From Dendrobates tinctorius (lineage: Eukaryota), in assembly GCF_039654945.1 (NCBI RefSeq), contig NW_027362106.1:310001-374000 (forward strand): DNA of 64,000 bases, written 5' to 3'. The translations under genes were made by a program, and so were the position numbers. The notes below the pieces were generated by a model. The model was not told where the DNA came from. It saw only the letters and a list, made by a program, of their open reading frames with translations, and did not search any database. Every line of letters starts with the position of its first letter. The first letter of the stretch is position 1. Positions 1-33,329 of this stretch are shown here, piece by piece.

Positions 1-444
1 CCTGTTGGTTCCATGCTTGATTTTAGTTAGTTTTTTTCCATGCGTATACAATGGCGGAGAAAATGGGATGATTATGGGTGGTAGAGTTTCGGTTGAGCAA
101 GAGATTGAATATTAGTTATTTTGAGTGTTTATGATTATTTCAAAAGGAGCTCTTGAACTGAGGACAGGACACATTGGGAAAGCATTTTTTCTTATCTGCT
201 GCCTTGTCTAGTATATCATCCAGGGCTTGACCGAAAATAGAATTAGACTTACCGGTAATTCAGATTCTAGGAACCCTTCACGACAGCATAGGAGTTTGTC
301 TCCACACCCTAATGGGGGACAGGAAGCACAAAGAGGTTAAAAAGCCCCTCCCACCTTCTACTCGCCAGTGACTTATAACGAACACCATAGCACAGGTTAC
401 CTTTAAGCTCCAAGGAATAGTCCAAGGAACATAGGGAAAGAATT

Positions 445-533
445 AGTGCTGTCGTTGAAGGTTCCTAGAAACCGAATTACTGGCAAGTCTAATTCTATTT
501 TCTCTAGTTACCCTCCACGACATCATAGGAGGA
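445..533. repeat. DIRS internal complementary region (ICR) of element B
   Basis: First half is complementary to 234-290; second half copies the opposite terminus; the halves join at CTATTTTCTCTAG. Confidence 0.88.
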
Positions 534-2077
534 ATACCAACTAATACAGCACTAGGGGGGACCACAGCCTGGAGTACTTTCCGGCCATTGACTAGATCCC
601 TATTGGACAATAAGTCCAATCTATATAGTGTTTTGTGATGGTATGAAGCGAAGACCATGTTGCGGCCCTGCAGATCTGCTCGGTGGATGCACCTGCTCTT
701 TCTGCCCAGGAGACTGATGTGGATCTCATAGAGTGTGCCTTGAACCCAGCTGGAGGGGGGGGTTGTCATGTACTGAGCCAGCTACGTTTCGGATATAGCC
801 TTCTAGATACAATTCGAGATGGTGCTTTTTGCAACTTTCTTCCCTTTATTTTGACCCAGTTGATGAACAAACAAATGTTGTCTATTTCTCCAGGAACTGG
901 TTTGTTCTAGGTGGTATAAGTTGGTACGCCGAACATCGAGAGTATGGAATTCTTCCTCTTTTGGATAGGCTGGATTCTGGCAAAAGGAGGGGAGGACGAT
1001 CTCCTGAGACCAGTGGAAATCAGACAACTTTAGGAAGAAAGGACAGATCAAGACGGAGGACTATAGAGTCAGCTCTAATTATTAAAGTTCTCTTATTGAT
1101 AAAGCTTGTAATTCTCCTACACGCCTTGCTGTGGTTATAGCGACAAGGAAAGCAGCTTTGTATGCGGGGAGTTGAGGAGTACAGGAAGACAGGGGTTCAA
1201 ACGGTGGGAGTGAGCCCCTTGAGGACTAAGAAGGGACGACAGTCTGTTTTCTGGAATGCGATCTGAGAGCCAGTATCAAAAATCTCTTAATCCAACGGTG
1301 GTTTGACCAAGTCCTGATCGAATATGGAAATTAGGGCGGAGACCTGAACCTTCAGAGTACTAGGCTTAAGGCCTAATTCTAGCTCTTTCTGTAGGAAGTC
1401 CAATATTTGTGAAATATTTGGGTGGAATGGAGCAGGAAGATTAGGGAAGCAGAAGGATGAAAACATCTTCCACACCTTATTATACTGTATATGGTATTGG
1501 TAACTGGCTTTCTGGATCTCTGTAAAGTAGTAATTACGGTGTCCGAAAGTCCTCTAGCACTTAGCACCTGGGCATCAGTAAACAGGCAGCTAGATTCAAT
1601 ATTTGAGGTTCTGGATGATGAAGGGGTCCTTGTGAAAGAAGGTCAACTTCCACTGGTAAATGAACTGGACTGTTTTTCTGGAGCTCGACGATGAGGTTGA
1701 ACCTGCTACTCTTTGGCCACTCTGGAGCCACCAGGATAGTTGGGACCTGAGTATTCGCCAACATTGGAATCGGTGGAAAGGCGTAGGCCAACTGAAAGCT
1801 CCATTTTTGAGCAAAGGCATCTACTCCCCTGACCCTGGGATTCAAGGAAAAAAAGGCTTTGACCTGGGTGTTTTGACCTGAAGCAAGCAAATAGATTTCT
1901 GGTAGGCCCCATGTATCTACCAAAATTTTGTAGACTCTTCTGTTCATGCTCCATTCTCCCGACTGTATGTCCTGGTGACTCAGGTAATCTGCCTGAAAGA
2001 TCCCTTTAGATGAACAGCTGTCAGGGAGAGAAGGTGTTTTTTGGCCCAACAGAATATTCGGCCTGAAATGCCTCTTA

Positions 2078-2475
2078 GGGTACCGTTACACTTAGCGATG
2101 CACCAGCGATCCCGACCACGATATGACGCGGTCAGGATCGCTGGTGCATCGCTAAGTGGTCGCTAGTGAGCTGCTACACAGGCAGATCTCACCAGAGACA
2201 TAGCAGGGGTCGGGGGTCGTTACTTACCTTTCAGACGAGGAGATCCTGACGTCCTCCCGCCCGCGTCCACGCGTCGGCGCCACAGGAAGCCCAGCAGGAA
2301 GTGGTCGACGAGAAACGGCCCAGGACGTTATCGCGCGATCAGCGATAACCAGCGGGGGAGCGGGTCGGAGGCAAGTATCAGACATAGCGATATCGCTAGC
2401 AATATCGCTGCTGCATCACAAAACCAGTGACGTTACAGTGATATTGCTAGCGATATCGCTTAGTGTAACGGGCCC
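2078..2475. mobile_element. Harbinger-type MITE in DIRS B
   Basis: TIRs GGGTACCGTTACACTTAGCGA / TCGCTTAGTGTAACGGGCCC; TTA on the left flank; interrupts pol. Confidence 0.75.
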
Positions 2476-5400
2476 TTTAAGCTGTTGAACCTTGTGCTCC
2501 CCTGATGTTTGAGGTGGGCAACTGCAGTCATGTTGCTCGAATAAATTCTGAAGTGACATCTGGAGATTAGATTGCTTGCAGCAAGAAGAGCTTCATCCAC
2601 TGTCTTCAACTCTTTGAAGTTGGGGGACCTTGTGCTTATCCTCTGATCCCAGAGATCCTGGAAAGGAGTACAAGATACTATGGCTCCCAGCCTCGTTTGC
2701 TGGCATTAGATGTTATCGTAACCATGGGAGATTGTGACCAACTCATGCCTCTGCAAAGATTTTTGGGGTTCAACCACCACGCTAGGGAGGCCCTTACGCG
2801 TCCTGAAGTGTGTTTTCTCTTTAGAGTGCTGGGATTCCCGTTCCAATTCTCAAGGATGTGGGCTTGAAGAACTCTGGAGTGGGCATGCGCCCAGGACACT
2901 GATTGAATGCAGGCCGTCAAGGAGCCTAGTATTGACATGGCTTCCCGAAGGGTAGGGAGACCTTTGCTTTCGGAGGTTTGCAATCTTTGCCATCATAGTC
3001 AGGCGATGATCCTCAGGGAGAAAGGACATCTGCTTCCCAGAGTCTAACAGGACCCCCAGAAACCTTGTTTTGGAGGGCTGAAGCTGAGACTTCTTCAGAT
3101 TTGGCAGCCACTCCAGAGATAGCAGAATATCTAGAGTTCTTGACACATGGCTCCTGAGAATATGAGCAGAGGAGCCTACGACTAGCAAATCGTCCATTGG
3201 GGAGATTGTGTTTGACCTTAAGAGATCTTGGAGGCCTGTCATCAGCATTGTCTGGGCTCCCTGAGATGGAAGGGAGGTGACTTTCAGACTCCGAGGGGGG
3301 GGGGGACTCGAACTCTATCAAGAAGCCCTCCTTGATGGTATTTATCACCCACTGGGAATTGGAAATGGCCTCCCAATGGTGGAAAAAAATTTGCGAGCCT
3401 CCCCCCCACCGGGTAGGAGTCATTGTTTATCCTGCTGGTGCTGCTGCTGGGGAACAAGGATGTTCTTCCCCTTTCCCTTAGCATAACTCCATCTCCCAGT
3501 TTTACCTTTTCCCTTTGTCTGGGGGGTCTGAGACAAAGGCACGAAAAAAATTGTCCCTGGGAGGTTTTTACTCAGGAAGGGCTTTTTTTTCCTATCAGTG
3601 GCCTTCTCTAAAATTTCATCAAGAGCAGGACCAAAAACGTATTCGCCTTTAAATGGGATTGAGCATAATTTGCCTTTTGAGACTAAATTCCTGCTCCACA
3701 ACATGAGCCAGAGAGGTCTTCTGGCAGAGGTAGATTGAACCAGTGATCTGGCAGCAATCCAAATTGACTATTGGCCCTTTGGAGAATAGGTAGAGTCCAA
3801 TACTCTCTTGAGGTACGCTGGGATATAGGATGTTCCAACTCTTCCAGCCATCCGAAGAGGGCTCTGGTCACACAGGTGGAAGCGATATTAGATTTTAACG
3901 CAGAGGTGCACGTTTCCCAGGATTTCTTCAGCAGATTTTCTATCCACTGGATCTTTTAGCTGCAAAGAATCCTCAAAGGGGAGTGCGGTTTTCTTTGCTA
4001 CACTCGCCACCTGAATGTTCACCTTAGGAACATCCCAAGTAGGGGGAATCATGCTTCAAGGATACCTATGTTTCAATTCTGAGGGGGTGGTAAAGCGTTT
4101 TTCTGGAAGCTCCAATTCCTGAGATATCAGATCCAGGATGTTTTTATGTACTGGGAAGCCAATCTGTCTCCCTGTTTTAAGCCCCCAAACATTTTGTCCT
4201 GAATGGACTCAGGGACTGACTCTTCCAACCCCATAGTCCTACGTACTGCGCTCACCAGCTCTTCTATATACTCTGAAGAGAAAAAATATTTTCTCGCCTC
4301 CAAAGTTCTACGGGATGTAGATTCTTCCCATTTTTCTGAGGACGAAGTATAATAGTGTTCGGACTCAGAGTCCACCACCTGAATTTTCCTTTTTTCAGAA
4401 GGAGTTGGCCCTGGAAAAGATGGTGGCGGAGGAGGAGGGGTAAAGGCGTTTAAGGAGGATTGAACCTCCTGCTTAGCCAGGGTACGGATTTCCTTGATGA
4501 GAGAGGGATGTTGCAGATAGCACATTTGGGAGGCTTTTTGGCAGGGGCCTTATGGGCAGAGTTGTCTCCCTAAAAGAGAGAGGCAGAGTAGTGTAAGTAG
4601 AGGGACAATCTACACTTCCCAGGACCTTAGGCAGAGACCCACCCCACATCCGACCTACTGGAGGAGGGGCAGCGCTGGGCTCTGCAGGCCCAGGGCAGGA
4701 AGCACCATCCATACTGAGGTAATCAGTCTTACCTGGAGGTGTCTTCAGGCAGGTTTATATAGCCATAAACCCTGCCCTCAGCGCGACTGAATATTCCCCC
4801 CTCCTCCTCCCCGGGTCCAAGAGCAGGCTTCCGCGTACTTCTGTGTGCTCAGAACGCCGTTCGGTAGTCCGGGGGCCACAGGAGGCTGAAACCGGAAGTA
4901 CATGCGTTCCAGCGTGGAACGCAAGGCCCGGAAGTGACACGCGCCCTTTATTGACGTCACTTCTGGGACGCCGAACAGCGCAAAAAGGGAAGAGGAAAGA
5001 CCGGAGAGCTCAGGGAGGCCTCCGGTCGGGGATCACCGGCCTGCTTTACCCCCATGTGGGGACGCAGGTGGGCCGGGAAAGGTCCCGAGGCCAAACACTG
5101 GGCGACGGCAGCAGAAACAGAGGAGGAGGGCCGAACTCACAACCACCACTGCCCGGCTAATAGGAGGTACGCTGTAGTCACCAGCCCCACATCATACGTG
5201 GTAACCTCTCCATGCTCCATGGGAGACAGAAAAGACAATGGCGAGCAGGAGGGGCTTTTTAACCTCTTTGTGCTTCCTGTCCTCCATTAGGGTGTGGAGA
5301 CAACCTCCTATGCTGTCGTGGAAGGTGACTAGAGAAAAGGTATTTCCCTTCACATGGGATAGAGCATAGCCTAGACTTGGACTGGGCATCTCCCGGCCAG

Positions 5401-7600
5401 CTTTTGATTCTGTGGGCAGCAGTGGACAGGTTTGCCGATCTGGCTGCTAATCTAACAGAATCGGTCGAGGTGTCAGCCAAAAAGGAAGCTGCTCCCTGCA
5501 ACAGCAGAAGGTTGGCCAGGATCTTTTCTCTCCGGGTGTTGTCTCTAAGATGGTCTTCATGCTGCTGTAGCCACACCATCATAGACCTTGCCGTGCAGGT
5601 TGCTGCTATTGCTTTAACGAGCCTGTCGATGATACCCAGGCTTGATTTAGGAAGACTTCAGCCTTCTTGTCCAAGGGATCCCTGAGAATCCCTAGGTCCT
5701 CAAAGGGCATCGTAGAAGTTTTGACCAATTTTGTAACCGCGACGTCGATCTTTGGGGTCTTCTCCCATATGCCTGCCTATTCCTCATCAAAAGGATATCT
5801 CCTATTTGAAGATGGTAGTGGACCTTTCCTTTCCGGCCTCTTCCACCCTCTACTAATACAGTAAGCATCTTGATTTTCTCATTAACTGGAAAAGAACACC
5901 TCTTCCTCTGCTCCAAGTCACTGAACATAATGTCCTGGACTGTTCTGCTAGTCTTGGGATCAGTTATTTCCATAGTGGACCTTATTGTCCTAACCAGCCT
6001 GTCGGTACCCTCAGGAGGGAAGCAGGGTCTACCCCGTGTCCTCATCAAAGAAGGAAGAGGAGGATGAATTTGTCAGGTCCGAATCCTCCCCTTTAAACGC
6101 TACTAATCCTTCAGACTCTGACGACAGTAGTTCTGGCTTTCCCTCTTCTCTTTGCCCCATCAGGTGCTTTAAGGAATCCTGGACCTCCGATCTAATGATG
6201 GCCTTTAGGTACATAGCGAACCCAGAGGTTTCTTCCAAGACAGTCTGCTGTATACACCCTGGGCAGAGCCTCTTACTATAAAGCACACGGTAAATCCCCC
6301 TTGCACAGTGCACACCCACTATTGTTCTGCTTTGAACATTTCAGAGGCCTTTCCTAGTAAAGGAATACACAGAGAAAGGGGATGTGTTTTAATTCAGCGC
6401 ACTTTCACTTAGCTCACTCACCATTCAGCTGATTAACCTACGGTACTGGAGACGAAGGCTGAGTTGGTTCCGAAGAACGTCTTCCCCTGGAGATGGGCTC
6501 GTGACCTGCCTTGCTTTTCAGGCTGGTCTTGCTGCTTGTATGACTGCCATCACTGCGTCCTTGCCAATGCTGCTGGCGGTGCTGAAATGGTTCCTGTGTC
6601 GACTGCAGCGAAGATGGTGGTGGTGGCATTGGGCAACGCACTGCTGTGGCTCTGATATAGGTTACCTTGACGTTTGGTAGAGCGGCTTAGTATACATTTT
6701 TTACAAAAAAAGTATCAGCCAAATACCCTGTTTCTTTATCATCTTTTTACTAGCACTTGCTGTTTACTGTTACTTCTTTACAACAGAGTATTTTTATACG
6801 TTTGTTTACTGTGCATTTCTATGTGTCAGTCTTTTGGTGGTGTGAACACTGTCCTACAGACTTATTCTCTGTGTGCATGGCCCATGTGTTTGCATGTATT
6901 TGCTGTGGCTGCTGCAGTTCATCCATGATCCGGATTGCTGCAGGAAATGCCATCATTTTTCTGGGCACCTCCCCTTTATGCCGGATGGCCCAGCCCACTT
7001 CTGGCTCCATCTCCCTGAAGTTCAAATCCGGTGCACTGTGTGCAGGGATGCATGTAGCCCTGCGTAGTCCCGGATGGCCGCTGTAGTTCACGACGTGCTA
7101 AGTCATCGAGATGCGCCGGATATCATCCTGCGTCCCGCCTGGGCGGCCTCACTTTCCGGCACACTCTGTCCCAGGACACACCAGCTCCATCCAACGTCCC
7201 AGACCCGGAAGCAAGTCCCGGCGCACATCGCTGTGGCGCTCATGGAACCTCCAGCGCACACAGACCCAGGACCTTGTCAGCTAGAGACATCTACCCAAAA
7301 GGTCTCAGCCTGCATGGCACTGCACCAACCCCCCCCGGTTAGTGTTACCTCACCCGCGGACGACATCCCTCGTTATGGGACACCCTCCTGAGAAAGTGTA
7401 CGGCTTCATTCTGCAGGTTCCCACGAGGACAGGAAACCAAACTGATATGAAGTAGAGATACCGCCTTTTTATTAAGTAGGTTTCCTGTCCTGGTGGGCGG
7501 ATACCCCCTCAGGTGGTGCTGTCATGGGAGAAGGGAAACACATTTTCATGCCATTGTAGACATAATGTATGTACTGCATATTGATAGTTCCATCTAGAAT

Positions 7601-14670: not shown

Positions 14671-15049
14671 GGCTGTGTGCACACGCTGCGGATTAGGTGC
14701 GGATTCATCCGCGCGGATTTTGTAAAATCCGCAGGTGAAACCGCAGGTCAAAAGACCTGCGGTTTTACCTGCGGATTGCTCTGCGGTTTTGTCCTGCGGT
14801 TTTTCATCTCCTCAATAGAGGAGATGGCAAACCGCAGGAGAATCCGCAGAAAGAATTGACATGTCAATTCTTTCTGCGGATTGAAAACCGCAGATAATCC
14901 GCGCGGAAAATTCCGCACCGTCTGCACTGCGGTTTTTGATTCCCATAGGGAATCATGGTACTGTACACCGCAGCAAAAACTGCTGCTGGTCCGCAGCGGC
15001 CAAAACTGCTGCGGAACCGCAGCAAAATCCGCAGCGTGTGCACACAGCC
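14671..15049. mobile_element. Harbinger-type MITE inserted in a telomere-like tract
   Basis: Perfect TIR GGCTGTGTGCACACGCTGCGGATT; flanks TAA / TTA. Confidence 0.88.
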
Positions 15050-15142
15050 TTAGGGTTAGGGCTAGGGTTAGGGCTAGGGCTAGGGTTAGGGCTAGGGTTA
15101 GGGCTCAGATTAGGGTTAGGGGTGTGTTGGGGTTAGGGTTGG
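15050..15142 (+). repeat. Telomere-like (TTAGGG/CTAGGG)n tract
   Basis: Read directly from the sequence. Confidence 0.9.
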
Positions 15143-15149
15143 AGTTATA

Positions 15150-17400
15150 ATTGGGGGTTTCCACTGTTTGGGCACATCAGGGGCTCTCCAAATGCAACAT
15201 GGCGTCTTATCTCAATTCCAGCCAATTCTGAGTTGAAAAAGTCAAATGGTGCTCCTTCCCTTCCAAGCTTTGCCATGCGCCCAAACAGTGTTTTACCCCC
15301 ACATGTAGGGTATCAGCCTACTCAGGACAAATTGCAAAACAATTTTTGGGGTCCAATTTCTCCTGTTACCCTTAGGAAAATAAAAAATTGGGGGCAAAAA
15401 TATCATTTTTGTGGAAAAAAATGATTTTTTTATTTTCACGTCCGAGTGTTATAAACTTCTGTGAAGCACTTGGGGGTTCAAAGTGCTCACCACACATCTA
15501 GATAAGTTCCGTGGGGGGTCTAGTGTCCAAAATGGGGTCACTTGTGGGGAGTTTCAATAGTTTAGGTACATCAGGGGCTCTCCAAACGCACATGACACCC
15601 GCAGACCATTCCATCAAAGTCTGCATTCCAAAACGTCACTGCTTCCCTTCCGAGCCCCGACGTGTGTCCATACAGTAGTTTTCTCCCACATATGGGGTGT
15701 CAGCGTACTCAGGCCAAATTGGACAACAACTTTTGGGGGTCCAATTTCTCCTGTTACCCTTGGGAAAATGAAAAAATTGGGGACTAATTGATCATGTTTC
15801 TGGAAAAAATACGACTTTTTTATTTTCATGCCCTGGCATTATAAACTTCAGTGAAGCCCTTGGGGGTTCAAAGTGCTCACCTCACATCTAGATAAGTTCC
15901 TTAGTGGGTCTAGTTTTCAAAATGGGGTCATTTGTGGGGGGTTTCCACTGTTTAGGTACATTAGGGGCTCTCCAAAGGCAACATGACACCCGCAGACCAT
16001 TCCATCAAAGTCTGCATTCCAAAACGTCACTACTTCCTTTCCGAGCCCCGACGTGTGCCCATACAGTAGTTTTCTCCCACATATGGGGTATCAGCATACT
16101 CAGGACAAATTGGACAACAACTTTTGGGGTCCAATTTCTCCTGGTACCCTTGGGAAAATAAAAAAATGGTGACTAAAAGATCATGTTTGTGGAAAAAATA
16201 CGAATTTTTTATTTTCACGCCCGGGCGTTATAAACTTCTGTGAAGCACTGGGGGGTTCAAAGTGCTCACCACACATCTAGATAAGTTCCTTGGGGGGTCT
16301 AGTTTCCAAAATGGTGTCATTTGTGGGGGGTTTCCACTGTTTTGGTACATCAGGGGTTTTCCAAACGCGACATGGTGTCCGATCTCAATTCCAGCCAAAA
16401 ACGTCAAATGGCGCTGCTTCCCTTCCGAGCTCTGCCATGCGCCCAAATAGTGGTTTACCCCCACATGTGGGGCATCAGCGTACTCATGACAAATTGCACA
16501 ATAACTTTTAGGGTCCTGTTACCCTTGGAAAAATAAGAATTGAGGGTGAAAAGATCATTTTTGTGGAAAAAATATGATTTTTTAATTGTATGGCTTTATG
16601 TTATAAACTTCTGTGAAGCCCATGAGGGTTCAAAGTTCTCACCACACATCTAGATAAGTTCCTTAGGGGGTCTAGTTTCCAAAATGGTGTCATTTGTGGG
16701 GGGTTTCCACTGTTTTGGTACATCAGGGGTTTTCCAAACGCGACATGGTGTCCGATCTCAATTCCAGCCAAAAACGTCAAATGGCGCTGCTTCCCTTCCG
16801 AGCTCTGCCATGTGCCCAAATAGTGGTTTACCCCCCACATGTGGGGTATCAGCGTACTCAGGACAAATTGCACAATAACTTTTAGGGTCCTGTTACCCTT
16901 GGGAAAATAAAAATTGGGGTGAAAAGATCATTTTTGTGGAAAAAATATGATTTTTTAATTGTACCGCTGTACGTTATAAACTTTTGTAAAGCCCCTGTGG
17001 GTTCAAAGTTCTCACCACATATCTAGATAAGTTCCTTGGGGGGTCTAGTTTCCAAAATGGGGTCACTTGTAGGGGGTTTCCACTGTTTAGGTACATCAGG
17101 GACTCTCCAAACGTGACATGGCGTCCAATCTGAATTCCAACCAATTTTGCATTGAAAAAGTCAAACGGCGCTCCTTCCATTCTGAGCTCTGCCATGCGCC
17201 GAAACAGTCGTTCCCCCCCACATATCAGGTATCTGCGTACTCAGGACAAATTGCACAATAACTTTTGCATTCCAATTTCTCCTGTTACCCTTGGTAAAAT
17301 AAAAAAAATTGAACCTGAATTATTTTTTTTATGAAAAAAGTTAGATGTTCATTTTTTTTTAAATATTCAAAAAAATTCCTGTGACGCACCTAAAGGGTTA
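15150..17400. repeat. Tandem array with 373-389 bp units inside the inner piggyBac-like element
   Basis: The marker TTATAAACTT recurs at about 15449, 15839, 16228, 16601 and 16974. Confidence 0.9.
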
Positions 17401-19330
17401 ATAAACTTCTTGAATGTGGTTTTGGGCACCTTAAGGGGTGCAGTTTTTAGAATGGTGTCACTTTTGGGTATTATCTTTCATATAGACCCCTCAAAGTGGC
17501 TTCAAATGTGATGTGGTCCTAAAAATAAAATGGTGTTGTAAAAATGAGAAATCGCTGGTCAACTTTTAACCCTTATAACTTCCTAACAAAAAAAAAATTT
17601 TGGTTCCAAAATTGTGCTGATGTAAAGTAAACATGTGGGAAATGTTACTTATCAAGTTTTTTGTGTGCCGTATCTCTGTGATTTAAGGGCATAAAAATTC
17701 AAAGTTGGAAAATTGCGAAATTTTCAAAATTTTTGCCAAATTTCCATTTTTTTCACAAATAAACGCAAGTTATTTGAATGAAATTTTACCACTAACATGA
17801 AGTACAATATGTCACGAGAAAACAATGTCAGAATCACCGGGATCCATGGAAGCGTTCCAGAGTTATGACCTCATAAAGGTACAGTGGTCAGAATTGTAAA
17901 AATTGGCCCGGTCATGAAAGTGCAAACCACCCTTGGGGGTGAAGGGGTTAAACCAGAGAGTTATGCGACACAAAATAGTTGCTAAACAACATTTCCCACA
18001 TGTCTACTTTACATCAGCACAATTTTGGAAACAAAATATTTTGTTGGTAGGAAGTTATAAGGGTTAAAAGTTGACCAGCGATTTCTCATTTTTACAACAA
18101 AATGTACAAAACCATTTTTTTTTGGGACCACCTCACATTTGAAGTCACTTTGAGGGGCCTATATGGCAGAAAATACCCCAAAGTGACACCATTTTAAAAA
18201 CTGCACCCCTCAAGGTGCGCAAAACCACATTCAAGAAGATTATTAACCCTTCAGGTGTTTCACAGGAACTAAAGCAACGTGGAAAGAAAAAATGGACATT
18301 TTAATTTTTCCAACAAAAATTTTCTTTCAGCATCAATTTTTTCATTTTCACATGGGCAACAGGATAAAATGGATCCTAAAATTTGTTGGGCATTTTCTCC
18401 TGAGTACACCGATACCTCATATGTCGTCATAAACCACTGTTTTGGTGCACGGCAGGGCTCAGAAGGGAAGGAGCGCCATTTGACTTTTTGAATGGAAAAT
18501 ATGCTGGAATATTTAGCGGTTGCCATGTCGCATTTGGAGAGCGAGCCCCTGTGTGCCTAAACATTGGAGCTCCCCCACAAGTGACCCCATTTTGGAAACT
18601 AGACCACCCCAAGGAACTTATTTGTTGGGCAATTTCTCCTGAGCACACCGATACCTCATATGTGGTCATAAACCACTGTTTGGGCGTACGGCAGGGTCCA
18701 GAAGGGAAGGAGCACCATTTGACTTTTTGAATGGAAAATTATCTCCAATCGTTAACGGACACCAGGTCGCGTTTGGAGAGCCCCTGTGTGCCTAAACATT
18801 GGAGCTCCCCCCAAGTGACCTCATTTTGGAAACTAGACCCCTTATGGAACTTATCTAGATGAGTAGTGAGCACGTTGAACCCCCAAGTGCTTCACAAAAG
18901 TTTATAACACAGAGCAGTGAAAATAAAAATTTTTTTTTCCTCAAAAATGATTTTTTAGCACGCTATTTTTAATTTTCACAAGGGTAGCAGGATATATTAG
19001 ACCCCAAGAGTTGTTGTCCAGTTTGTCCTGAGTACGCTGGTACCCCATATATGGGGGGAAACCATTGTTTGGGCACACGTAAGGACTCAGAATGGAAGTA
19101 GTAATGTTTTGAAATGCAGACTTTGATGGAATGGTCTGCAGTCGTCATTACATTTGCAGAGCCCCTGATGTGCCTAAACAATAGAAACCCCCCACAAGTG
19201 ACCCCATTTTGGAAACTAGACCACCCAAGGAACTTATCTAGATGCCTGGTGAGCACTTTGAACCCCCAAATGCTTCACAGAAGGTTATAACGCAGAGACG
19301 TGAAAATAAAAAAATAAAAAATTTTCCACA

Positions 19331-19469
19331 CCCCTAACCCTAATCCCAACCACAAGCCTAACCCTAATTCCAACCCGAACCCTAATTCTAACTCTAATTC
19401 CAACCCTAACCCTAATTCCAACCCTAACCCTTGTTCCAACCCTAACCCTCTTTCCAACCCTAACCCTAA
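19331..19469 (-). repeat. Degenerate telomere-like (CCCTAA)n tract
   Basis: Read directly; lies at the position homologous to the 15050 tract in the outer element. Confidence 0.88.
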
Positions 19470-20688
19470 TGGAAAAATAAAAATAAAACTAATTTCTTTA
19501 CTTTATTAGTTGTTCCTGCCTATGGGGGTGATAATCGGGGGGGTTTATTTACTTTTCATTTTATTTTGATCACTGTGAGAGTTTATCACATCGCCGCTGT
19601 CATTCAGTGGCGGGGGGTAGATCGCCCCCGTTAACCGGTGGGGGGGTTGGATAGGTGTCACCAGCCATGTCCGATGCTACAGCAGCGTCGGACACGGCTC
19701 TATTGTAATATTTCATCAATTTTCATTGATGAAATATTACTATCGCTCTGATTGGCTGTTAAAAGTGAAACAGCCAATCAGAGCGATCGTAGCCACATGG
19801 GGGCAAAGCCATGCCCCCCGTGGTGAAGTACAAAGCCCCCTGTATCTGCGGGTCGGGTGACCTTTCAGTGACCTAGGTCACCCAACCCGCATGGGGGCTT
19901 TGAAGTCATGACACAGGGTATGCGTCATTGGTCGGAATGGCACCGACTTTCATGACGCATATGCTGTGTCACTGGTCGTGAAGGGGTTAAACTCACCCCC
20001 TGGGTGGGTTTGTAGGTAACTGGGACGGCCCGTCTCCCCAGCTACCTGGAGACTTCTCCCTGACACATTGAAACAGCATATCAGCAGTATCACTGCTGAT
20101 CAACACACACACACACAAGTCTCCATCTCAAGGCCACCCACCTTGAGATACATAACGGTCATTCAGGATTCTGCCATTCATCTTCTCTCCTAGGACACCC
20201 ACACAGCGCCCCCCTAGCGGACACAGTGGTCACTACACCACAGTGTATACATGGCTGACACGAGACACTTCAGTACAGAGAGGAGGAATGGTTTGAACTC
20301 CATCTGCATGGGTTTCATCTTATGGAGTGTGTCATAGCACAGATTGTGCCGGCAGCATCTCAGATTCCACCATTACCATAGTATGTGCCCTGTCCTGTGC
20401 AGGATCCATGTGATAGCGGAAGTGAGCTATACCAGTTATATCTGTCCATTATATGGCCTGCCAGTTTAATAAGTCTACCCCGCCTGAAAGTTACCCAAGG
20501 TAGAACTACAACTGCTGTGCGTGCCACTATGGCTCCAGTAGTCGACAACATTGTTAAATCGCCCTGGCCTATCATATGTGTTTAACGGGACGATGGGGCT
20601 CGCCTGTCGTGTGAGATTGGCGCAATTTTGTAACAGGTCAGTTTACTCATGATGGGAAGAGATGGGTGCAGGGATCGGAAGGAATCAC

Positions 20689-24379: not shown

Positions 24380-25872
24380 CAAGTGAATACTGCTTTGAGC
24401 AGGGGGTTGGACCAGATGACACAGGACGTCCCCTCCAACTCTACCATTCTATGATTCTATACTACAATAGCAAGCCCAGACTTTGTCTCCAAAAGAAAAA
24501 TAGAACTACACTTACCGGTAGTTGGATTTCTAAGACCCTACACGACAGCACACAGAAGGTTGCCTCCCCATCCTTATTAGGGACAGGAAACAGGAGGTTA
24601 AACAGCCCTCCCCTTCCTCTATTCCCCAGTGTTTTCCAAGGACCACATGGAGTGAATGCTTGATATATTATTTATTCATACAAGTCAAATGAACAAAAAT
24701 TGTTAGGGGGGGGGAATTACCCGTGCTGTCGTGGAGGGTCTTAGAAACTCAACTACCGGTAAGTGTAGTTCTATGTTCTCTAATCCCCTCCACGACAGCA
24801 CACAGGAGGTATACCAAAGAATAATGGTTTAGGGAGGGACCACGGCTTGCTGAACTTTCCTGCCAAAGGCTAGATCTCGTACTGACATAAGATCTAATCT
24901 ATAATGCCTAGTGAAGGTATGGACTGAAGACCAGGTCGCAGCCTTGCAGATCTGCTCGATGGATGCATTTGCCTTTTCTGCCCAGGAAACGAAGACAGCG
25001 CTAGTGGATTGGGCCTTCAAGGATTCCAGAGGTAGATCGTGATTTTTATAAGCAGCCGTGATTGCTTTCTTGATCCAGTTAGCTAGGGAGCTTTTGTACG
25101 CTTTTTCCCCCCTTTGTTTGGTCCGCCATACTGAACAAAAAGATTCTGATGTTTCTTCCAGAGTTTTGTTTCTTCCAAATAGGCCAGGACTGCTCGCTGG
25201 ACATCCAGAGAATGGAATCCCACTTCTCTCATCCTTCGGGTTATCACAGAAGGAGGGCAGTATTATTTCTTGGGACCTGTAGAAATCCAAAGACACTTTT
25301 GGCACAAAGGAAGGGTCTAGCCGGAAGATTAATCTATCGTCCAGAATTCTTAGATAAGACTCTCTGATGGACAGAGCCTGAATTTCGCCCACCCTTCTTG
25401 CCGTTGTAAGGGATACGAGTAGTGCTGTTTTCCAGGATAGTTTATCTATCTGGGTCTGGTCGATAGGTTCAAATGGAGGGCTTGTTAGACCCTTTAGGCT
25501 AAGTGCAGATGTACTTTTTAGGCTGGTTTCACATTTGCGTTTTTTAGCGCTGGAAAAAAACGCTAACCTGCGCATGCGTTTTTTCCCCTATATTTAACAT
25601 GGGTGCGCATACCTGCGCGCTGCCATGCGCATGTATGCGATTTTCATGCGCTGCGTTTTTTTGGGGTATGCGTTGGTATTTTCCAGACGCAGCATGTTGC
25701 ATTTTTTGGCCCTGCAAAAAAGCGCATGCGCACATATGCGCACGTTTTGCGCTAAAAATGGCCATTATAGCCTATGGGTGCGCATATGTGCGCATTGGCA
25801 TGCTTATGTATGCGTTTTTTTGCACAAGCGTTGTTTTTTTTTAACCATGGAATTTAGGGGTTTGGGTTAGAG

Positions 25873-26003
25873 NNNNNNNNNNNNNNNNNNNNNNNNNNNN
25901 NNNNNNNNNNNNNNNNNNNNNNNNNNNNNNNNNNNNNNNNNNNNNNNNNNNNNNNNNNNNNNNNNNNNNNNNNNNNNNNNNNNNNNNNNNNNNNNNNNNN
26001 NNN
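25873..26003. other. Assembly gap (N run) within the telomere-like tract
   Basis: Run of n flanked by GGGTTAG repeats. Confidence 0.99.
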
Positions 26004-26021
26004 AAGGGTTAGGGTCAGGGT

Positions 26022-28432
26022 TATAGAATCATAGAATCATAGAATCGTAGAGTTGGAAGGGACCTCCTGGGCCATCTGGTCCAACCCCCTGCTCAAAGCA
26101 GGATTCGCTAAATCATCCCAGTCAGATGTCTGTCCAGCCTCTGTTTGAAGACTTCCATTGAAGGAGAACTCACCACTTCTCGTGGCAGCCTGTTCCACTC
26201 ATTGATCACTCTAACTGTCAAAAAGTTTTTTCTAATATCTAATCTGTGTCTCCTCCCATTCAGTTTCATCCCATTGCTTCTAGTCTTTCCTTGTGCAAAT
26301 GAGAATAAAGTTGATCCTTCTGCAATGTGACAGCCCTTTAGATATTTGTAGACAGCTATTAAGTCTCCTCTCAGTCTTCTCTTTTGCAAACTAAACATTC
26401 CCAAATCCTGCAACCTTTCCTCATAAGACAGGGTTTGCAGACCGGTCACCATTCTGGTCGCTCTTTTCTGAACTTGCTCCAGTTTGTTGATGTCTTTTTT
26501 AAAATGTGGTGCCCAAAACTGGACACAATATTCCAGATGAGGTCTGACCAAAGAGGAGTAGAGGGAAATAATGACTTCACGTGATCTAGACTGTATGCTT
26601 CTGTTAATACATCCTAGAATTGCATTTGCCTTTTTTGCTGCTGCATCACACTGTTGACTCATATTCAGTCTGTGATCTATTAGTATACCCAAGTCTTTTT
26701 CACATGTGCTGTCACTTAGCCCTATTCCTCCCATTCTATATATGCTTTTTCCATTTTTATTGCCCAGATGTAGTACTTTGCATTTCTCCCTGTTAAAAAC
26801 CATTCTGTTTGTTGCTGCCCACTTCTCCAGTTTATTTAAATCTTTTTGAATCCTCTCTCTCTCTTCTCTAGTATTAGCTATCCCTCCTAGCTTTGTGTCA
26901 TCTGCAAATTTAATCAGTTTACCCTCAATGCCTTCATCTAAATCGTTGATAAAGATGTTGAACAATACAGGGCCCAGGACAGAGCCCTGTGGTACCCCAC
27001 TTGAGACATTCTTCCAACTGGATGTGCAGCCATTTACGACCACTCTTTGGGTCCGATCTCTAAGCCAGTTATGAATCCACCTAACAGTTGCCTTGTCCAT
27101 TCCATACTTAATCATTTTTTCAATAAGGATTGTATGAGAGACTTTGTCAAATGCTTTGCTGAAGTCAAGATATACTATATCTACAGCATTTCCTTGATCC
27201 ACCCAATCAGTGATACCGTCATAGAAGGAAATTAAGTTAGTCTGACATGACTTATTAGTTACAAACCCATGCTGACTCTGTTTAATCACTTCATTCTTAT
27301 CCAGGTATTGACATACATGTTGTTTAATAATTTGTTCAAAGATCTTTCCTGGTATAGAAGTCAGACTCACCGGCCTATAGTTACCTGGGTCCACCTTCTT
27401 CCCCTTTTTGAAGATAGGAACAACATTTGCTCTTCTCCAGTCTTCTGGGACTTCTCCTGTTCTCCAAGAATTTTCAAAGATTATAGAGAGGGGTTCAAAA
27501 ATTTCTTCTGCTATCTCCTTCAGTACTCTGGGGTGTAATTCATCTGGACCTGGAGACTTGAATTCATTTAGGCTAGCTAAGTGTTTCCTCACTATCTTTC
27601 TGTTTATAGATATCCTGGATTCTTCTATTCCCTTAATAGGACAGTGAATAACAGTTGATGTTACATTTCCTTTCTGAGAGAAAACAGATGCAAAATAGGA
27701 ATTTAAAAGTTCAGCCTTCTCAACATCCTGTCTTACCATTTCATCATTTTCATCCTGTAAAAATCCTATAGCATCTTTGACTTTTCTTTTACTTTTGACA
27801 TATCCCCAAAATCCTTTATTATTGCTTTTGACATCTCTTGCAAGCCTCAATTCATTTTCAGCTTTAGCTAATCTGATTTGTGCCCTGCAGGTTCTGCAGA
27901 CAGCATTATATTCTTCTTTAGATATGCCTCCCTCTTTCCATTTTATAAACATTTTTTTCTTCCTTTTTAGCATGTGCTTAAGTTCTGTGTTCATCCATCC
28001 TGGTTTCCTTAACTGCTTCCTATTCTTCCCTCTTTTCGGAATTGTTAACAACTGTGCTTTGAGAATTTCATTTTTCAAGATTTCCCATCCTTCCTGGACA
28101 TTTTTGTCTTTAAGGATATCCAGCCATTGGATCCCTCCAATTCTCTTTCTGAATCCCTTAAAATCTGCCTTTCTGAAATCTAACCTTGACGTCTGAGTCT
28201 TCACAGGTCTTCCGCCTCTAGTTATCCAAAATTCTAAAATAGCATGGTCGCTACCTCCTAGGGTCCCAGCCACTTTTACCTCCTCAACCATTTCCTCCCT
28301 GTTTATAAGGATTAGATCCAAGGTAGCAGTTCCCCTTGTTTTCTCCCTTACCTTTTGGAAGATAAAGTTGTCAGCAAGAGAGGATAAGAATTTCCTTGAC
28401 CTGTTAGTTTTGCCTGAGAGAGATTCCCAAAA
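26022..28432 (-). mobile_element. Young, 5'-truncated CR1 LINE
   Basis: (GATTCTAT)n 3' tail at about 26022-26047; uninterrupted ORF2. Confidence 0.95.
26108..28321 (-). CDS. CR1 ORF2 (end of endonuclease plus reverse transcriptase), 5'-truncated
   Basis: 737 codons without a stop; [27 protein letters not shown] and KFADD motifs. Confidence 0.93.
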   Translation of the reverse strand: MDLILINREEMVEEVKVAGTLGGSDHAILEFWITRGGRPVKTQTSRLDFRKADFKGFRKRIGGIQWLDILKDKNVQEGWEILKNEILKAQLLTIPKRGKNRKQLRKPGWMNTELKHMLKRKKKMFIKWKEGGISKEEYNAVCRTCRAQIRLAKAENELRLARDVKSNNKGFWGYVKSKRKVKDAIGFLQDENDEMVRQDVEKAELLNSYFASVFSQKGNVTSTVIHCPIKGIEESRISINRKIVRKHLASLNEFKSPGPDELHPRVLKEIAEEIFEPLSIIFENSWRTGEVPEDWRRANVVPIFKKGKKVDPGNYRPVSLTSIPGKIFEQIIKQHVCQYLDKNEVIKQSQHGFVTNKSCQTNLISFYDGITDWVDQGNAVDIVYLDFSKAFDKVSHTILIEKMIKYGMDKATVRWIHNWLRDRTQRVVVNGCTSSWKNVSSGVPQGSVLGPVLFNIFINDLDEGIEGKLIKFADDTKLGGIANTREERERIQKDLNKLEKWAATNRMVFNREKCKVLHLGNKNGKSIYRMGGIGLSDSTCEKDLGILIDHRLNMSQQCDAAAKKANAILGCINRSIQSRSREVIISLYSSLVRPHLEYCVQFWAPHFKKDINKLEQVQKRATRMVTGLQTLSYEERLQDLGMFSLQKRRLRGDLIAVYKYLKGCHIAEGSTLFSFAQGKTRSNGMKLNGRRHRLDIRKNFLTVRVINEWNRLPREVVSSPSMEVFKQRLDRHLTGMI

Positions 28433-28439
28433 ATACTTA

Positions 28440-28658
28440 TGGTTAAGTATGGTTTGGTCAAGGGTTAGGGTCAGGGTTAGGGTCAGGGTTAGGGTTAGTT
28501 AGGGTTAGGGTCAGGGTTAGGGTTAGTTAGGGTTAGTTAGGGTTTAGGGTTTGGGTTAGGGTTAAGTATGGTTTGGTTAAGGGTTAGGGTCAGGGTTAGT
28601 TAGGGTTAGTTAGGGTTAGGGTCAGGGTTAGGGTTAGTAAAGTCTTGGTTTGGGTTAG
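28440..28658 (+). repeat. Telomere-like (TTAGGG/TCAGGG/TTAG)n tract
   Basis: Read directly; continues the tract at 25855-26021. Confidence 0.92.
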
Positions 28659-31600
28659 TGTGAGGGGCCACCTAATGTTGGAAAAAAACGCAAACGCGGT
28701 AAAAACGCACTAAAAACGCTTACAAACGCATAAAAACGCTGCGTTTTTTTCATGCATGCTCATAAAAATGCTTGAAAAAAACGCAGCAGTTGTATGCTTT
28801 TGTATGCGTTTTTTTAATGCGTTTTTTTGCGGGAAAAACGCGCTGCAAAAAAAAGCAAGTGTGAAACTAGCCTTAGCCCTGCGGATTTTTCCGCGCAGAG
28901 CTGAAGAAATCCGCAGGTCAAATGACCTGCATTTTTCCTGCGGATTTCTTCCAGTTTTCTTGCGGTTTTTGTGCAGTTTTCCCCTGCGGATTTGGAGAAT
29001 GGAGCAGGTGGAAAACCGCACAAAAGAAGTGACATGCTGCATATTTTGAACCACAAGAAAACCGTGCGGAAAAATCAGCAGCGTCTGCACAGCGGTTTTT
29101 TTTTCTATTGACTAACATGCTACTGTACATCAGAATGCGGATATGCAATGTTTCTGTGCGGTAAAATCTGCTGCGGATCCGCTGGATATCTGCATTGTGT
29201 GCACATGGCCTTAGTACTATATTCGAGTCCCAATCTGGGACCATGCTGGATTTGTTTGGACGGATTCTGGAAGCTGCTGACAAATCTCCTGATCCATCGA
29301 TGCTCTGCTAGGTTTTGGTCGAAGTAAGAACTCAGGACTGATACTTGGACCCTCAAGGTACTTGGTTTTAGTCCCTTGGATAAGCCATCTTCTAGGAAAT
29401 CTAGGATCTTTGCTAAGTCTGGGTGGAAGGGATCAATGGCAGTGGATCCATACCATGCCGAGAAAGTCTTCCATATTTTGGAGTATATGGCGTTTGTGAT
29501 TGGTTTCCTACTCTTTTGTAAAGTGGATATCACTGCATCTGAGAGTCCTCTGGCTTTCAGGATTGTGGTTTCAGAAGCCAGGATGCCAAGCTTAAGCTGT
29601 GGGAGCCGGGTGAAGGATGGGACCTTGATGTAGAAAGTCGCGGTCCAAAGGTAGGATCAGAGGACCCCCTGAGTTCATTAGTCTTAGGGCTCCGAATCAG
29701 CTCTTTTGGCCAGAGAGAGGCGATCAGGATAGTTTTGACCCCGTCTGTCCTGACCTTTTGCAGAGTTCTTGGTATTAGGGGAATTGGTGGAAAGACGTAT
29801 GCCTGTCTGAAGTTCCACGGGTGAGCGAAGGCATCCGCCCTTGAATGTTTTTCGTTTGGACCTATGGAGAAGTACTGCTTTGTTTTGGCGTTCTCCCGGT
29901 TCGCAAATAGGTCTACCTCTGGGAGACCCCATTTTTTTGTTATGTGTGGAATACTCTCATATTGAGGCTCCATCCTCCCGGATCTATGTCTATCCTGCTT
30001 AGGAAGTCTGCCTCGACGTTGTCGGATCCTTTCAGGTGGAGAGCTGATAGGGACTGGAGATGGCGTTCTGCCCAGCCAAATATCCGTGTCGAAACGTTTT
30101 GCAGGCTACCGTATTTTGTGTTGCCCTAATGACGTAGATGAGCCATGGTGGTCATATTGTCGGAGTAAATCAGGACATGGGTTCCCTGGATTGAGGCTTC
30201 CGCTGCCTTTAGGGCTTCTTATACCGCTCTCAGTTCTCTGTAATTGGATGATTGTTTTTCCATGTCTTTGGGCCAGAGTCCCTGGAAGACTCCCTGCAAT
30301 GATATTGCTGGCATCTTTGCTGGCATCTGTTGTGATTGACATCATGGGATATTGTATCCAGGGTGTCCCTTTTGCTAGATTTCCCTGGTTGAGCCACCAG
30401 TTGAGACAGCTTTACGTGTTGGGGTAGGGAAATTCTCGTATTGAGGGTCTCTGGGTCTTTGTTCCAGTGGGATAGGATATATCTCTGAAGTATCCTTGAG
30501 TGGGCCTGGGCCCAGGGGACCGCCTGGATGCAAGAAGTCATTGACCCTAATGTTGACATGGCAAACCTTATAGTCACCGGTTTTTGACTTTTTAAGAGTC
30601 CGAACTTTTGATCTTACGCCTACCTGCTTGGTTGGCGGAAGAAAGGATATTTGGTTCTGGGAATCTAGGAGGATCCCTAAAAAAAACCTTCCTGGTTGAG
30701 GGATTCAGGTCTGATTTTTCCAATTTACCATCCAGCCTAGGGATGCCAGGGTCCGCAGGACTGATTGCAGGTGCTCTCTTAGAGTGGTGTTGGAAGGAGA
30801 CATAACCAGAAGGTCGTCTAGGTAAGGGACGACACATATGTCCTTTCCTCTGACGAATGCTACCACTTCTACCATTATTTTTTAAATGTTCGGGGTGCCG
30901 ATGATATGCCGAAGGGCAGAACCTTGAACTGGAAGTGGTGTATTTCTTCATCTAGAGTGACTGCAAACATTATATATCGCCAATGAGACGGATGGATGGG
31001 TACGTGGTAATACACCTCTTGGAGCTCTATGGTGGCCATGGGAAAATCTTTTCCGATCACTGGTATTGTGGTCTTTATCAATTCCATCTTGAAGCGTTGG
31101 TAACGGACATGTTGGTTCAGTTTCTTTAGGTTGATGATGACCCGGTATTTCCCACTTGGCTTTTTCACTAAGAACAGCCGAGAGTAGTGGCCTTGACCCT
31201 GCTCCGGTTCTGGAACTGGTTAGATTACCGCCGATGATAGCATCTTTTGGAGTTCCGAATGCAGAGCTTTTTTTGAAGTCTTGCTGAAGGAAGGCGTGAT
31301 ACTTCCAGGTTTTGAGGGGGGCTGGAGGAAAATTCTATTTTTACGCCCCATCTGACAGAGTCTAGGATTCTTCGATCTGTGGTTATCTTCTGCCAGTTCG
31401 GGAAGTAGTTTGCGATTCTGCCCCCTACCTGCTTGGCGTCATTTCCTGTCTGTCTGAGCGAGAGTCGTGAAAAATATTCCTGCCTTTTCGGTAGCTCCAT
31501 CGCCCTGTTTTCCCTTTCCCACTGTATTGAGGGGTTTGAGCCTGGGGTGGGCTAAAGGGCATTTTCTTGGGTGGTTTCAGCTCGGGAAGATTTTTCTTCT

Positions 31601-33329
31601 TGTCGGTCACCTTTTCTAGTAGTTCATCCAGAGCTGGACCAAATACATATTCGCCCTTGAATGGAATAGAGCACAATTTTGATTTTGAATATCTCCACTC
31701 CACATTTTCAGCCATAAGGCCCTTCGGGTGGTGTTGAAAAGTACTGATGTTCTTCCCGCAATACGGACAGATTCTGCCGAGGAGTCCGCTAAAAAGCCTG
31801 CTGCCTTCTGTAGAAGCGGTAGAGAGGATAGAAGATCTTCCCTCGGAGTTCCACTTTTGATATGTTCCTCTAACTGCTGAAGCCAGAGGTACAGGGTTCT
31901 AGTTACACAGGCCGATGCAACATTTGTTTTTAAGGAAGCAGCTGATGCTTACCAGGACTTCCTCAGTAGACAATCCATCTCCTGGTCAAGCGGGTCCTTG
32001 AGCTGAGAGGAGTCCTCGAAGGGTAGCGTAGTTTTTTTTAGCTACTCTAGCTACGTGGATATCTACTTTCGGAACCTCAGTCCAAGGCTTCGCGGCTTCT
32101 TCATCCAGGGGAAACCGATCTTTCATTTCGCCCGGGATACTTTGCTTCTTTTCCAGGAATTCCCTTTCTTCCAAGATTAGATTCTGGACATTATCATGGA
32201 TAGGGAAAACCATTTTCTTCCTAGACTTCAGGCTGCCAAATAGATCATCCTGCACTGAGCGAAATGTCTATATTCTTCTACTCCCATTGTGTTCCTGACA
32301 GCCGAGAGTAGTTCTTCCATATCATCTGAGGAAAAGAACCATTTCCTATCATCTTCTGTCTGGGTTGGGGTTAATTCACCCTATTCCCTCCAATCCGCTG
32401 ACTCGGGTTCAGAATCTGAGATGTCCTCAGGGGCATATTTCCTCTTCCTTGAGGGCCCCCCCTGAATGACTGGGAAAAGGTAGCCAGGGACGACTGGATC
32501 TCCTGTCGCACCATCCCCCTTGCTTCATCCATCAGGAATGGTTGTTCCTCCCAGATGATTTTTCCCCGTTCATTGCTGGCACAAGGTTTTTTGTAATTGG
32601 AGGGGAGATTTTTCCTACAGATGGAGCATTTGCGGCTTGTAGACTTTTCTTCCGCTTTTGGTGCAGGATCCTTGTCTCCTTGAAAGAGAGAAAGGGAGGG
32701 GGGCCCCTAAGAATAGGTCCTGAACCAAAAAAGGGGTATACCCTTTTCCAAGTGTACTCACTGGGCTAGGGTTTGCGCTGGGCTCTGCAGAAGCAGCTTT
32801 CAGGGAAGACGCATCCATCATGCAGACGTTAGTCCTACCTTATGTAGTCTTCCATCGGGGTCCTTAAATAGGAACCGAGATCCAGCGTTTCTTTACCTCA
32901 TCCAATCGGATGAGATCACTCCCCCTCAGTTCCTGGCGTCATCCTGTTTTTTTTTTCCCCCGAATTTCAAATCTCCCGCCAAGATGGCGGTGCGTTCCAC
33001 TGTGGAACGCAAGGCGGAAGTGACGTCTCGCCTTCAGACCTGGCGGTGAACGTCACTTCCGGTGCATGCTGCGCGATTAGAAGCGAGCATGCGGCGCGCG
33101 GGGGGGAGCGGATCCTGGGCTGGGGAGCTTTGGGAGGCCCCCAGCCCGGTTACTACCATCCAGCATTGCCGAGGCGCCGGAGGACGGTGCGGGTCCCGCC
33201 AGAGGCAGGAGTAGCGTCCGGGAAGGAAGCTCCGGGACAATCGACCCCAGCTGCCCAGCTTCCAGGTAGGACTCCGGGATTTTCCGGCCCCATCCACGGA
33301 GCACAGAACCTCTTCATCCGAACTAGGGA

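Follow-up and report, generated by a model that had tools for sequence, protein, structure and literature searches.

A gag intron close to the ATG in DIRS1-like retrotransposons of frogs, probably kept through the copying of mostly unspliced RNA

The locus examined here raises the question of how an element that is copied through RNA could hold an intron in its first gene. An earlier note, made from the letters of the DNA alone, had pointed to an intron inside ORF1 of a DIRS retrotransposon in Dendrobates tinctorius and to a splice donor shortly before the ORF1 ATG, and had suggested that such elements replicate from unspliced RNA and use alternative donors much like a retroviral major splice donor. 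We re-read the minus strand of the window, by which we mean the whole stretch of 64,000 nucleotides (contig NW_027362106.1, positions 310,001 to 374,000), and recovered the observation with every coordinate as described (Table 1). Our answer is that frog DIRS1-like elements probably bear a spliceosomal intron at the start of gag, which is likely spliced in the window element B and kept via the copying of mostly unspliced RNA, with spliced mRNAs started separately.

DIRS1-like elements of the window and the intron at the start of gag

Three DIRS elements lie in the window. Element B interrupts an older one, element A (about 1-7532), whose gag reads PCEGKYLF before B and GQALDDILDKAADKKK after B's right end, where the frame resumes. 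B has the traits of the DIRS1-like superfamily: inverted repeats (5248-5333 and 266-351) of 93% identity, and an internal complementary region (ICR; 447-532) that matches 5304-5338 and 233-288. The LAP2alpha-type ORF1 is recognized by PF11560 above cut-off in the relatives L141, L173 and L225, with no match in the window copy's own gag fragment, and RVT_1 and RT_RNaseH score above cut-off in the intact relatives L179 and L238, the window copy being decayed. As in the superfamily, there is a tyrosine recombinase without a DDE integrase. The recombinase frame of element C has 38 homologs, several of them named Tyr recombinase domain or bearing PF00589; direct Pfam matches for the recombinase are weak (E 0.0016 and 0.058, below cut-off), and L145 gave none. 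For the adenine methyltransferase that follows RNase H in the superfamily, one of three RT frames has a possible Dam match (PF05869) at E 0.007, again below cut-off. The closest matches to the DIRS proteins of this genome are frog proteins.

After CAIC, B has a 70-nt deletion relative to its sibling L008 that takes the second cysteine pair (CxxC) and shifts the frame, so gag cannot be made from the window copy. Other repeats in the window include a LINE-like RT-bearing frame inside element C (26108-28498, minus strand), a Tc1-type transposase (39079-39798, minus strand), a fragment of a Harbinger-type DDE nuclease (43226-44134, minus strand), and telomere-like TTAGGG arrays beside tandem repeats of about 385 nt in both orientations (15039-19481 and 28440-28651).

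Table 1. Features of the DIRS elements in the window; a slash marks a proposed splice boundary
Feature	Position	Strand	Remarks
DIRS1-like element B, full length but decayed	234-5338	-	Inserted at a T run within gag of element A
Predicted upstream promoter in left inverted repeat: TATA-like GTTAAAAA and initiator-like CCATTG	5235-5262	-	Predicted
Antisense donor-like site in leader	5167-5172	+	Candidate; TACC[TG] in 11/13 representatives
Leader donor-like site GG/GTAAAG	5044-5049	-	Candidate; G/GTGAGT in C, CAG/GTAAGA in G
Predicted internal TATA box TATATAAA, 5' of ORF1	4754-4761	-	Kept in B siblings
Donor-like site CAG/GTAAGA (CCAG/GTAAG, GT at 4732-4731)	4727-4732	-	Candidate; 20 nt before ATG 4712 in this copy, 19-40 nt before the ATG in families B-F
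gag exon 1, 18 codons, 54 nt, MDGASCPGPAEPSAAPPP	4659-4712	-	54 nt in 17/21 scored B copies
gag intron 1, 89 nt, phase 0	4570-4658	-	GTAGGT...CTTAC...TTTTAG; branch-like CTTAC and pyrimidine tract
gag exon 2 of B (zinc finger and LAP2alpha-type region)	3420-4569	-	Broken: 70-nt deletion at 4512/4511 and later lesions
RT / RNase H region of B, decayed	1565-3419	-	Insertion near 2085-2470; ends approximate
Tyrosine recombinase region of B, decayed	555-1590	-	By tblastn to element C; ends approximate
Element A intron 1, 93 nt	6354-6446	-	In-frame stop; second donor G/GTGAGT at 6421; two-donor layout as in families G and H
Element C, third DIRS of the window	about 24500-34300		Interrupted by additional insertions
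Element C exon 1 and 82-nt intron (32761-32680)	32680-32821	-	Acceptor mutated in window copy
Element C TATA-like box (32870-32863) and donor-like AAG/GTAGGA at 32838	32833-32870	-	

Removal of the GT-AG intron that follows the 18 codons of B yields GDNSAHKAPAKKPPKCAIC; the unspliced frame misses the cysteines and then meets a stop. The donor of the window copy is GTAGGT, and GTAAGT stands in 18 of 21 scored B donors. Element C had been said to share the layout, and it does in its exon, donor and intron plan; the acceptor of its window copy, however, has gone from AG to AA at 32680, an AG that 22 of 29 anchored C copies keep. Likewise, the similar sites noted in element A do include an intron, but exon 1 is longer there and two donors lie inside the intron.

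We fetched 30 copies of family B, 30 of C, 25 of D and 25 of E, in each case the best-scoring of 40 candidates and with the window copies included; 8 of these 110 loci had no anchors and were left out, giving 102 anchored copies. A phase-0 intron stands immediately 5' of the gag zinc finger in every DIRS family examined. Among the anchored B-E copies a donor is found at the exon end in 94 and an AG acceptor in 86; exon 1 has a length divisible by 3 in 88 of 94 scored copies, and the intron measures 68-94 nt, with an in-frame TAG in the 81-nt introns of C and D. The spliced frame arrives at the CxxC of the zinc finger in 72 of the 102, the unspliced frame in 7. Conservation of the splice sites against a divergent interior, which the earlier note had proposed as a check, is what the families display: in pairwise comparison of B, C, D and E (6 pairs, family F having no representative), identity is 67-89% over the final 27 bases of the exon and 36-55% in the intron interiors, where shuffled sequence gives 43-47%. 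Donor, branch-like site, pyrimidine tract and acceptor are retained in families whose interiors have diverged to the shuffle level, as in a spliceosomal GT-AG intron. A motif joining the exon-1 end to GTRAGT occurs 955 times in the 6.36-Gb assembly and 0 times as a reversed control, so the layout is more than chance. In the distant families A, G, H and H2, exon 1 is longer, and the intron, unchanged in position and phase, holds another donor, GTGAGT, at 17-27 nt into its length.

Splicing had been held necessary to reach the CxxC frame. None of the 77 anchored B, C and D copies reads through, which agrees; 7 of 25 E copies do, having an intact frame from ATG to CxxC across a stop-free intron of 75 or 78 nt. 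These belong to one subfamily, E2. The sister subfamilies have 76 nt and the same splice sites, and we therefore read the open frame in E2 as a chance of phase, not as absence of the intron. One family E copy, L141, is open from ATG to stop over 464 codons, and the Logan proteins P0052 and P0058 resemble read-through of an in-frame intron. Gag models from toads and tree frogs (Bufo, Dendropsophus, Engystomops) begin with 16-20 residues, followed by G[ED]K or EKD and then the zinc finger, as the spliced form would. Reads of four runs of unknown kind, aligned to an E copy, gave no GT..AG joint among the 15 listed of 37, these runs being perhaps DNA skims, to judge by their size and longest record; on a G copy, reads of four runs guessed to be RNA gave none in 10, cover of the intron being thin or absent. 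Neither comparison speaks for or against splicing. A joint at 982-2533 in the E copy L145, which two runs from two studies contain, takes out gag at a microhomology and looks like a genomic deletion; it is probably a deleted, non-autonomous E copy.

Genomic copies that precisely lack an intron

An NCBI gag model (P0060) matches a copy of the young family G at 100%, as two exons, and such models may come from protein alignment instead of reads. The genome itself holds a record. Intron-less copies, for which the earlier note had advised a search, were found in G, though not in B-F: L173 and L174 lack exactly 135 nt and L175 exactly 136 nt, from GT to AG. All three are complete elements with both inverted repeats and the ICR. 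They are singletons from three different subfamilies, each with intron-bearing sisters, and these three independent losses share one junction. Intron 1 is real at group level, and family G has undergone its precise removal in vivo. Copies so precise must therefore reflect splicing in the germ line, and spliced RNA can be converted into a whole element. By homology to G, the introns of element B and of families B-F would be spliced as well.

The same counts bear on the proposal that these elements replicate from unspliced RNA, which they uphold: integrated copies come overwhelmingly from RNA that kept the intron. By pattern count, 3 G copies are without intron 1 and 182 have its acceptor (3/185), so that about 98% of scored G copies derive from intron-retaining RNA, and in B-F the ratio is 955 intron-bearing copies to 0, by an exact pattern with which decayed copies would be missed. 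G copies that join donor a to other acceptors yielded nothing new, the 4 matches being the 3 known copies and a donor point mutant, L192; nor did a genome search find other donors joined to the G exon-2 acceptor.

Family H offers a second case. Near the 3' end of its gag lies intron 2 (GAG G/GTGAGT...TTTTATAG/G; 94 nt, GT-AG), which entails a frame shift of one. Seven full-length H copies (L225-L231) are without exactly these 94 nt while keeping intron 1, both repeats and the ICR, and in L225 LAP2alpha, RT and RNase H are read in one frame of 1035 codons; the 23 sister copies examined keep intron 2. The seven come from 150 scored candidates, matching the joined protein without gaps at 94% or more, and since the ranking favours them, their share is at most 5%. 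On an RT-region tree, intron 2 has to change 5 times, at least 3 of these changes being required by well-supported branches; an equally low number arose in 46 of 500 shuffles, with bootstrap values that had yet to settle fully. Model P0140 maps in two pieces across intron 2 on the intron-bearing copy L235, and in 12 of 13 gag+RT models from three poison-frog species the frame switches directly after KxCxxPC[QE], 47-50 residues before the RT motif VGGRL.

Since the RT frame of H has no Met before codon 184, the intron-2 splice is a direct way to make RT in that family. The intron-2 donor GTGAGT is absent in families B-G, where RT must consequently be made otherwise; the RT frame of G does have an early Met. 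That splicing serves downstream mRNAs, as had been suggested, is thus borne out for Gag-RT in H, although it proceeds through intron 2 at the gag 3' end and not from the donor before the ATG. In the sister family H2, all 8 fetched copies (L245-L252, picked for a continuous gag-RT frame) are without intron 2 and keep intron 1, and they are 95-97.5% alike where the alignment is clean; L196-L198, for their part, form one clade in the RT-region tree. On both counts, loss of intron 2 may be heritable and tolerated. Possibly the H2 lineage makes only Gag-RT.

Donors, predicted promoters and a proposed division of RNAs

The donor before the ATG has the exact 20-nt placement claimed for it in element B. 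A fixed 20-nt spacing was nevertheless rejected: family B has 19-24 nt, C 20, D 22-25, E 31-32 and F 40, a range of 19-40 nt over these families. Its core, AG/GT[AT][AG]G, is kept in all five with neighbouring bases that do not align, and it is absent from families G and H. Of the architecture described as shared by DIRS 5' ends, then, the ORF1 intron was present in all families examined, and the upstream donor in B-F only. This donor sits 23-32 nt downstream of an AT-rich box, near the expected internal start site.

Two predicted promoters can be placed relative to it. In the left repeat, a TATA-like box and an initiator-like [CT]CAGT are 28-30 nt apart in 11 of 13 scored representatives (1 of 14 had no terminus match) and 22 nt apart in the window copy. 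The internal AT-rich box, which follows a GC-rich stretch, is TATTTAAG in C and G, TATTAAAA in F and weaker in D and E2. The presence of a TATA/initiator pair in the left repeat and an AT-rich box before the ATG suggests separate replication and messenger RNAs. At the right end of every family, some 20 nt from the terminus, a short palindrome holds a strong sense donor-like site (CCG/GTAAGT, CAG/GTATGT); this site (window 248-262, minus strand; also L141, L176 and L235) may serve the recombinase, bind U1 or do both.

In the mechanism that we propose, intron 1 splits the ATG exon from the zinc-finger exon in all families examined. Its removal from GT to AG in the germ line leaves spliced RNA that can be reverse-transcribed into a complete element, as the G copies show, while intron-keeping RNA is the source of every B-F copy scored by motif and of 98% of those scored in G. 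Removal of intron 2, its donor within the G-E-F codons near the gag end, shifts the frame by +1 and joins Gag to RT, which the H copies bear out. The left-repeat TATA/initiator promoter would supply the replication template, and the internal promoter before the ATG a messenger RNA that lacks the left end and hence could not be copied; RNA from the first start would be the natural template.

The model of the earlier note, which we consider unlikely, combines a single promoter with alternative splicing of the retroviral kind: transcripts begun in the left repeat would either stay whole for copying or be spliced, the donor upstream of the ATG being joined to acceptors for RT or the recombinase. 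It would account for a donor core that persists in five families amid unalignable bases, and leader donors are present in G and H too. Yet the donor before the ATG is missing from precisely those two families, no joint starting at it was seen and the only downstream splice seen uses another donor, so that the retroviral-major-donor reading is not supported as stated; the AT-rich box, moreover, lies 23-32 nt upstream of that donor, and in H the RT and recombinase frames have no early Met, so a non-coding leader alone could not start them. As an analogy the retroviral major donor may hold, without being the best reading. The donor may function less as a major splice donor than as a U1 site close to a promoter; most likely, from its position, it would be either a U1 site at the internal start or a donor on the long RNA only.

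Still less probable, in our judgement, is that introns persist since copying usually starts from an antisense RNA, begun at the copy of the left-repeat promoter that the inverted right repeat holds, and that sense RNA, once spliced, is copied only by accident. The right repeat is indeed a 94-100% inverted copy of the left with the same TATA/initiator, and antisense donor-like sites are conserved in the leader; against this, ten complete elements derive from spliced sense RNA, and in Dictyostelium, DIRS-1 loses through retrotransposition a marker intron that is spliced out of its transcript, according to the intron passages of PMC7192593. In their own right, the antisense donor-like sites, conserved in C-H leaders, suggest leftward transcription from a GC-rich internal promoter. 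That the splice sites are incidental or vestigial, with gag made from a downstream Met or by read-through and intron-less copies arising from occasional cryptic splicing, would suit the open frame of E2 and the several NCBI models that begin at later Met codons, but it has very little chance of being right given splice signals conserved across shuffle-level interiors and one junction in three independent losses, and for G and H it is largely refuted.

If template and messengers are separately started, as we favour, the intron must still be kept. Poor splicing of the template slows irreversible loss across the divergence time of the families but cannot stop it, and intron-less copies must therefore fare worse. 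Loss of intron 1 would thus be selected against, most likely since its donor or donors serve another product, for example the recombinase. Such a need is our guess at the simplest reason for retention.

In families C, E, G and H, the recombinase core lacks its own start codon. Directly 5' of it, a CAG in phase after a pyrimidine-rich run, a candidate acceptor, is found at 51 of 57 loci; it occurs in C, E, G and H without being universal: the bases differ in one H copy, in E3, in L025 and L089, and in the window copy. The residue at this candidate acceptor varies among 43 database RT proteins. In E and G (L147, L150, L178, L179, L186) the recombinase frame begins immediately downstream of the TGA of gag, shares the gag frame and continues without a stop across the whole RT overlap, for up to about 1000 codons; TGA read-through from gag is possible there. 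For H such read-through is excluded, its recombinase frame opening about 1.2 kb later. The frog model P0035 has a serine/arginine-rich N-terminus like gag exon 1 before its recombinase core, which could be an exon-1-recombinase splice or a prediction artefact.

More tentatively, and with rather less than even confidence, we suggest for vertebrate DIRS elements a complete splicing programme from one ATG exon. Removal of intron 1 would give Gag, removal of introns 1 and 2 Gag-RT, and joining of an intron-1 donor to an acceptor directly before the recombinase core would give the recombinase its start; intron-less copies would be dead ends, and the exon-2 acceptor would explain the capture of LAP2alpha and ZNF451.

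Comparison with known elements and meaning

Goodwin and Poulter reportedly mention an intron in some fungal DIRS. We found no report of native DIRS introns in titles and abstract openings, a scope outside which older papers and Repbase lie and an earlier mention is possible. The words 'intron' and 'splic' are absent from the main texts, supplements aside, of 10.1101/2021.08.05.455354, PMC3266345 and the fungal survey PMC3783388, the intron passages of PMC7192593 concern the Dictyostelium marker, and the accessible portions of PMC9341512, PMC5890265, PMC5718144 and 10.64898/2026.05.21.726589 added nothing. The anuran DIRS1-like elements DIRS_XT/XL of Xenopus, as the main text of 10.1101/2021.08.05.455354 and the overview PMC3266345 present them, resemble ours in having three ORFs (LAP2alpha-type gag, RT/RH, recombinase), inverted repeats, an ICR, T-run ends and a length of about 5-6 kb; here, by comparison, an intron divides gag, and a second one allows RT to be fused to it.

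Among other retroelements, barley BARE1 (Copia) has two TATA boxes, the upstream one giving the copied RNA and the downstream one a capped, partly spliced mRNA that starts too far in for copying, in the passages available from PMC3735527. The two-box layout of DIRS would work similarly, if both predicted promoters are real. BARE1 differs in being an LTR element with an integrase, and the Copia/BARE rule, by which splicing yields a Gag-only RNA and unspliced RNA Gag-Pol, is reversed for intron 2 of family H, where unspliced RNA gives Gag and spliced RNA Gag-RT. In the Arabidopsis Ty1/Copia element EVD (PMC5580714, in part) a conserved splice likewise balances Gag against enzymes, with a role of U1 beyond splicing, but the polarity is opposite and no ATG exon is separated from gag. 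Penelope-like elements, in the available text of 10.1101/2021.04.23.441226, also keep an intron through retrotransposition, near an internal promoter; theirs lies in the 5' untranslated region, and their enzymes and ends are different.

The donor-like site upstream of the gag ATG in B-F fits, by position, the retroviral donor 5' of the gag start. Foamy viruses have a spliced pol RNA. U1 binding at the retroviral donor can guard against early polyadenylation, and foamy viruses have an internal promoter, going by the portion of PMC12789967 available. Retroviruses, however, read gag from unspliced RNA, whereas in most DIRS families gag depends on splicing: without it the zinc finger is reached in 0 of 77 copies from B, C and D, the 7 of 25 in E being the exception.

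Spliced LAP2alpha exons of TMPO and ZNF451 have been traced to DIRS ORF1 in PMC4495291, in whose accessible text the word 'intron' is absent. In two gene models, P0044 and P0045, host exons (a kinase and an AP-3 subunit) are joined to DIRS gag at the start of exon 2; the native acceptor may trap host transcripts.

What we describe is a conserved intron in a known kind of element, with two splices proven in-genome in related families, from which we infer a two-RNA strategy. How three overlapping DIRS frames are expressed, two of them often without an early start codon, has no answer in those parts of the literature that we examined, and natural genomic copies record the exact junctions for the gag intron and the Gag-RT fusion. 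They also set a measured retention of the intron against a steady, irreversible loss (3/185 copies, in a single family); puzzles of this sort have come mainly from Penelope elements. For annotation that relies on ORFs, the consequence is that these elements, abundant as they are in the genomes of frogs, receive a truncated gag N-terminus and their Gag-RT protein is missed. If the programme from one ATG exon is true, loss of intron 1 would remove the recombinase donor, which would explain why the intron is kept despite its loss in about 1 in 60 new copies, and the exon-2 acceptor would account for the two mammalian captures of DIRS gag as a spliced terminal exon, in LAP2alpha and in ZNF451.
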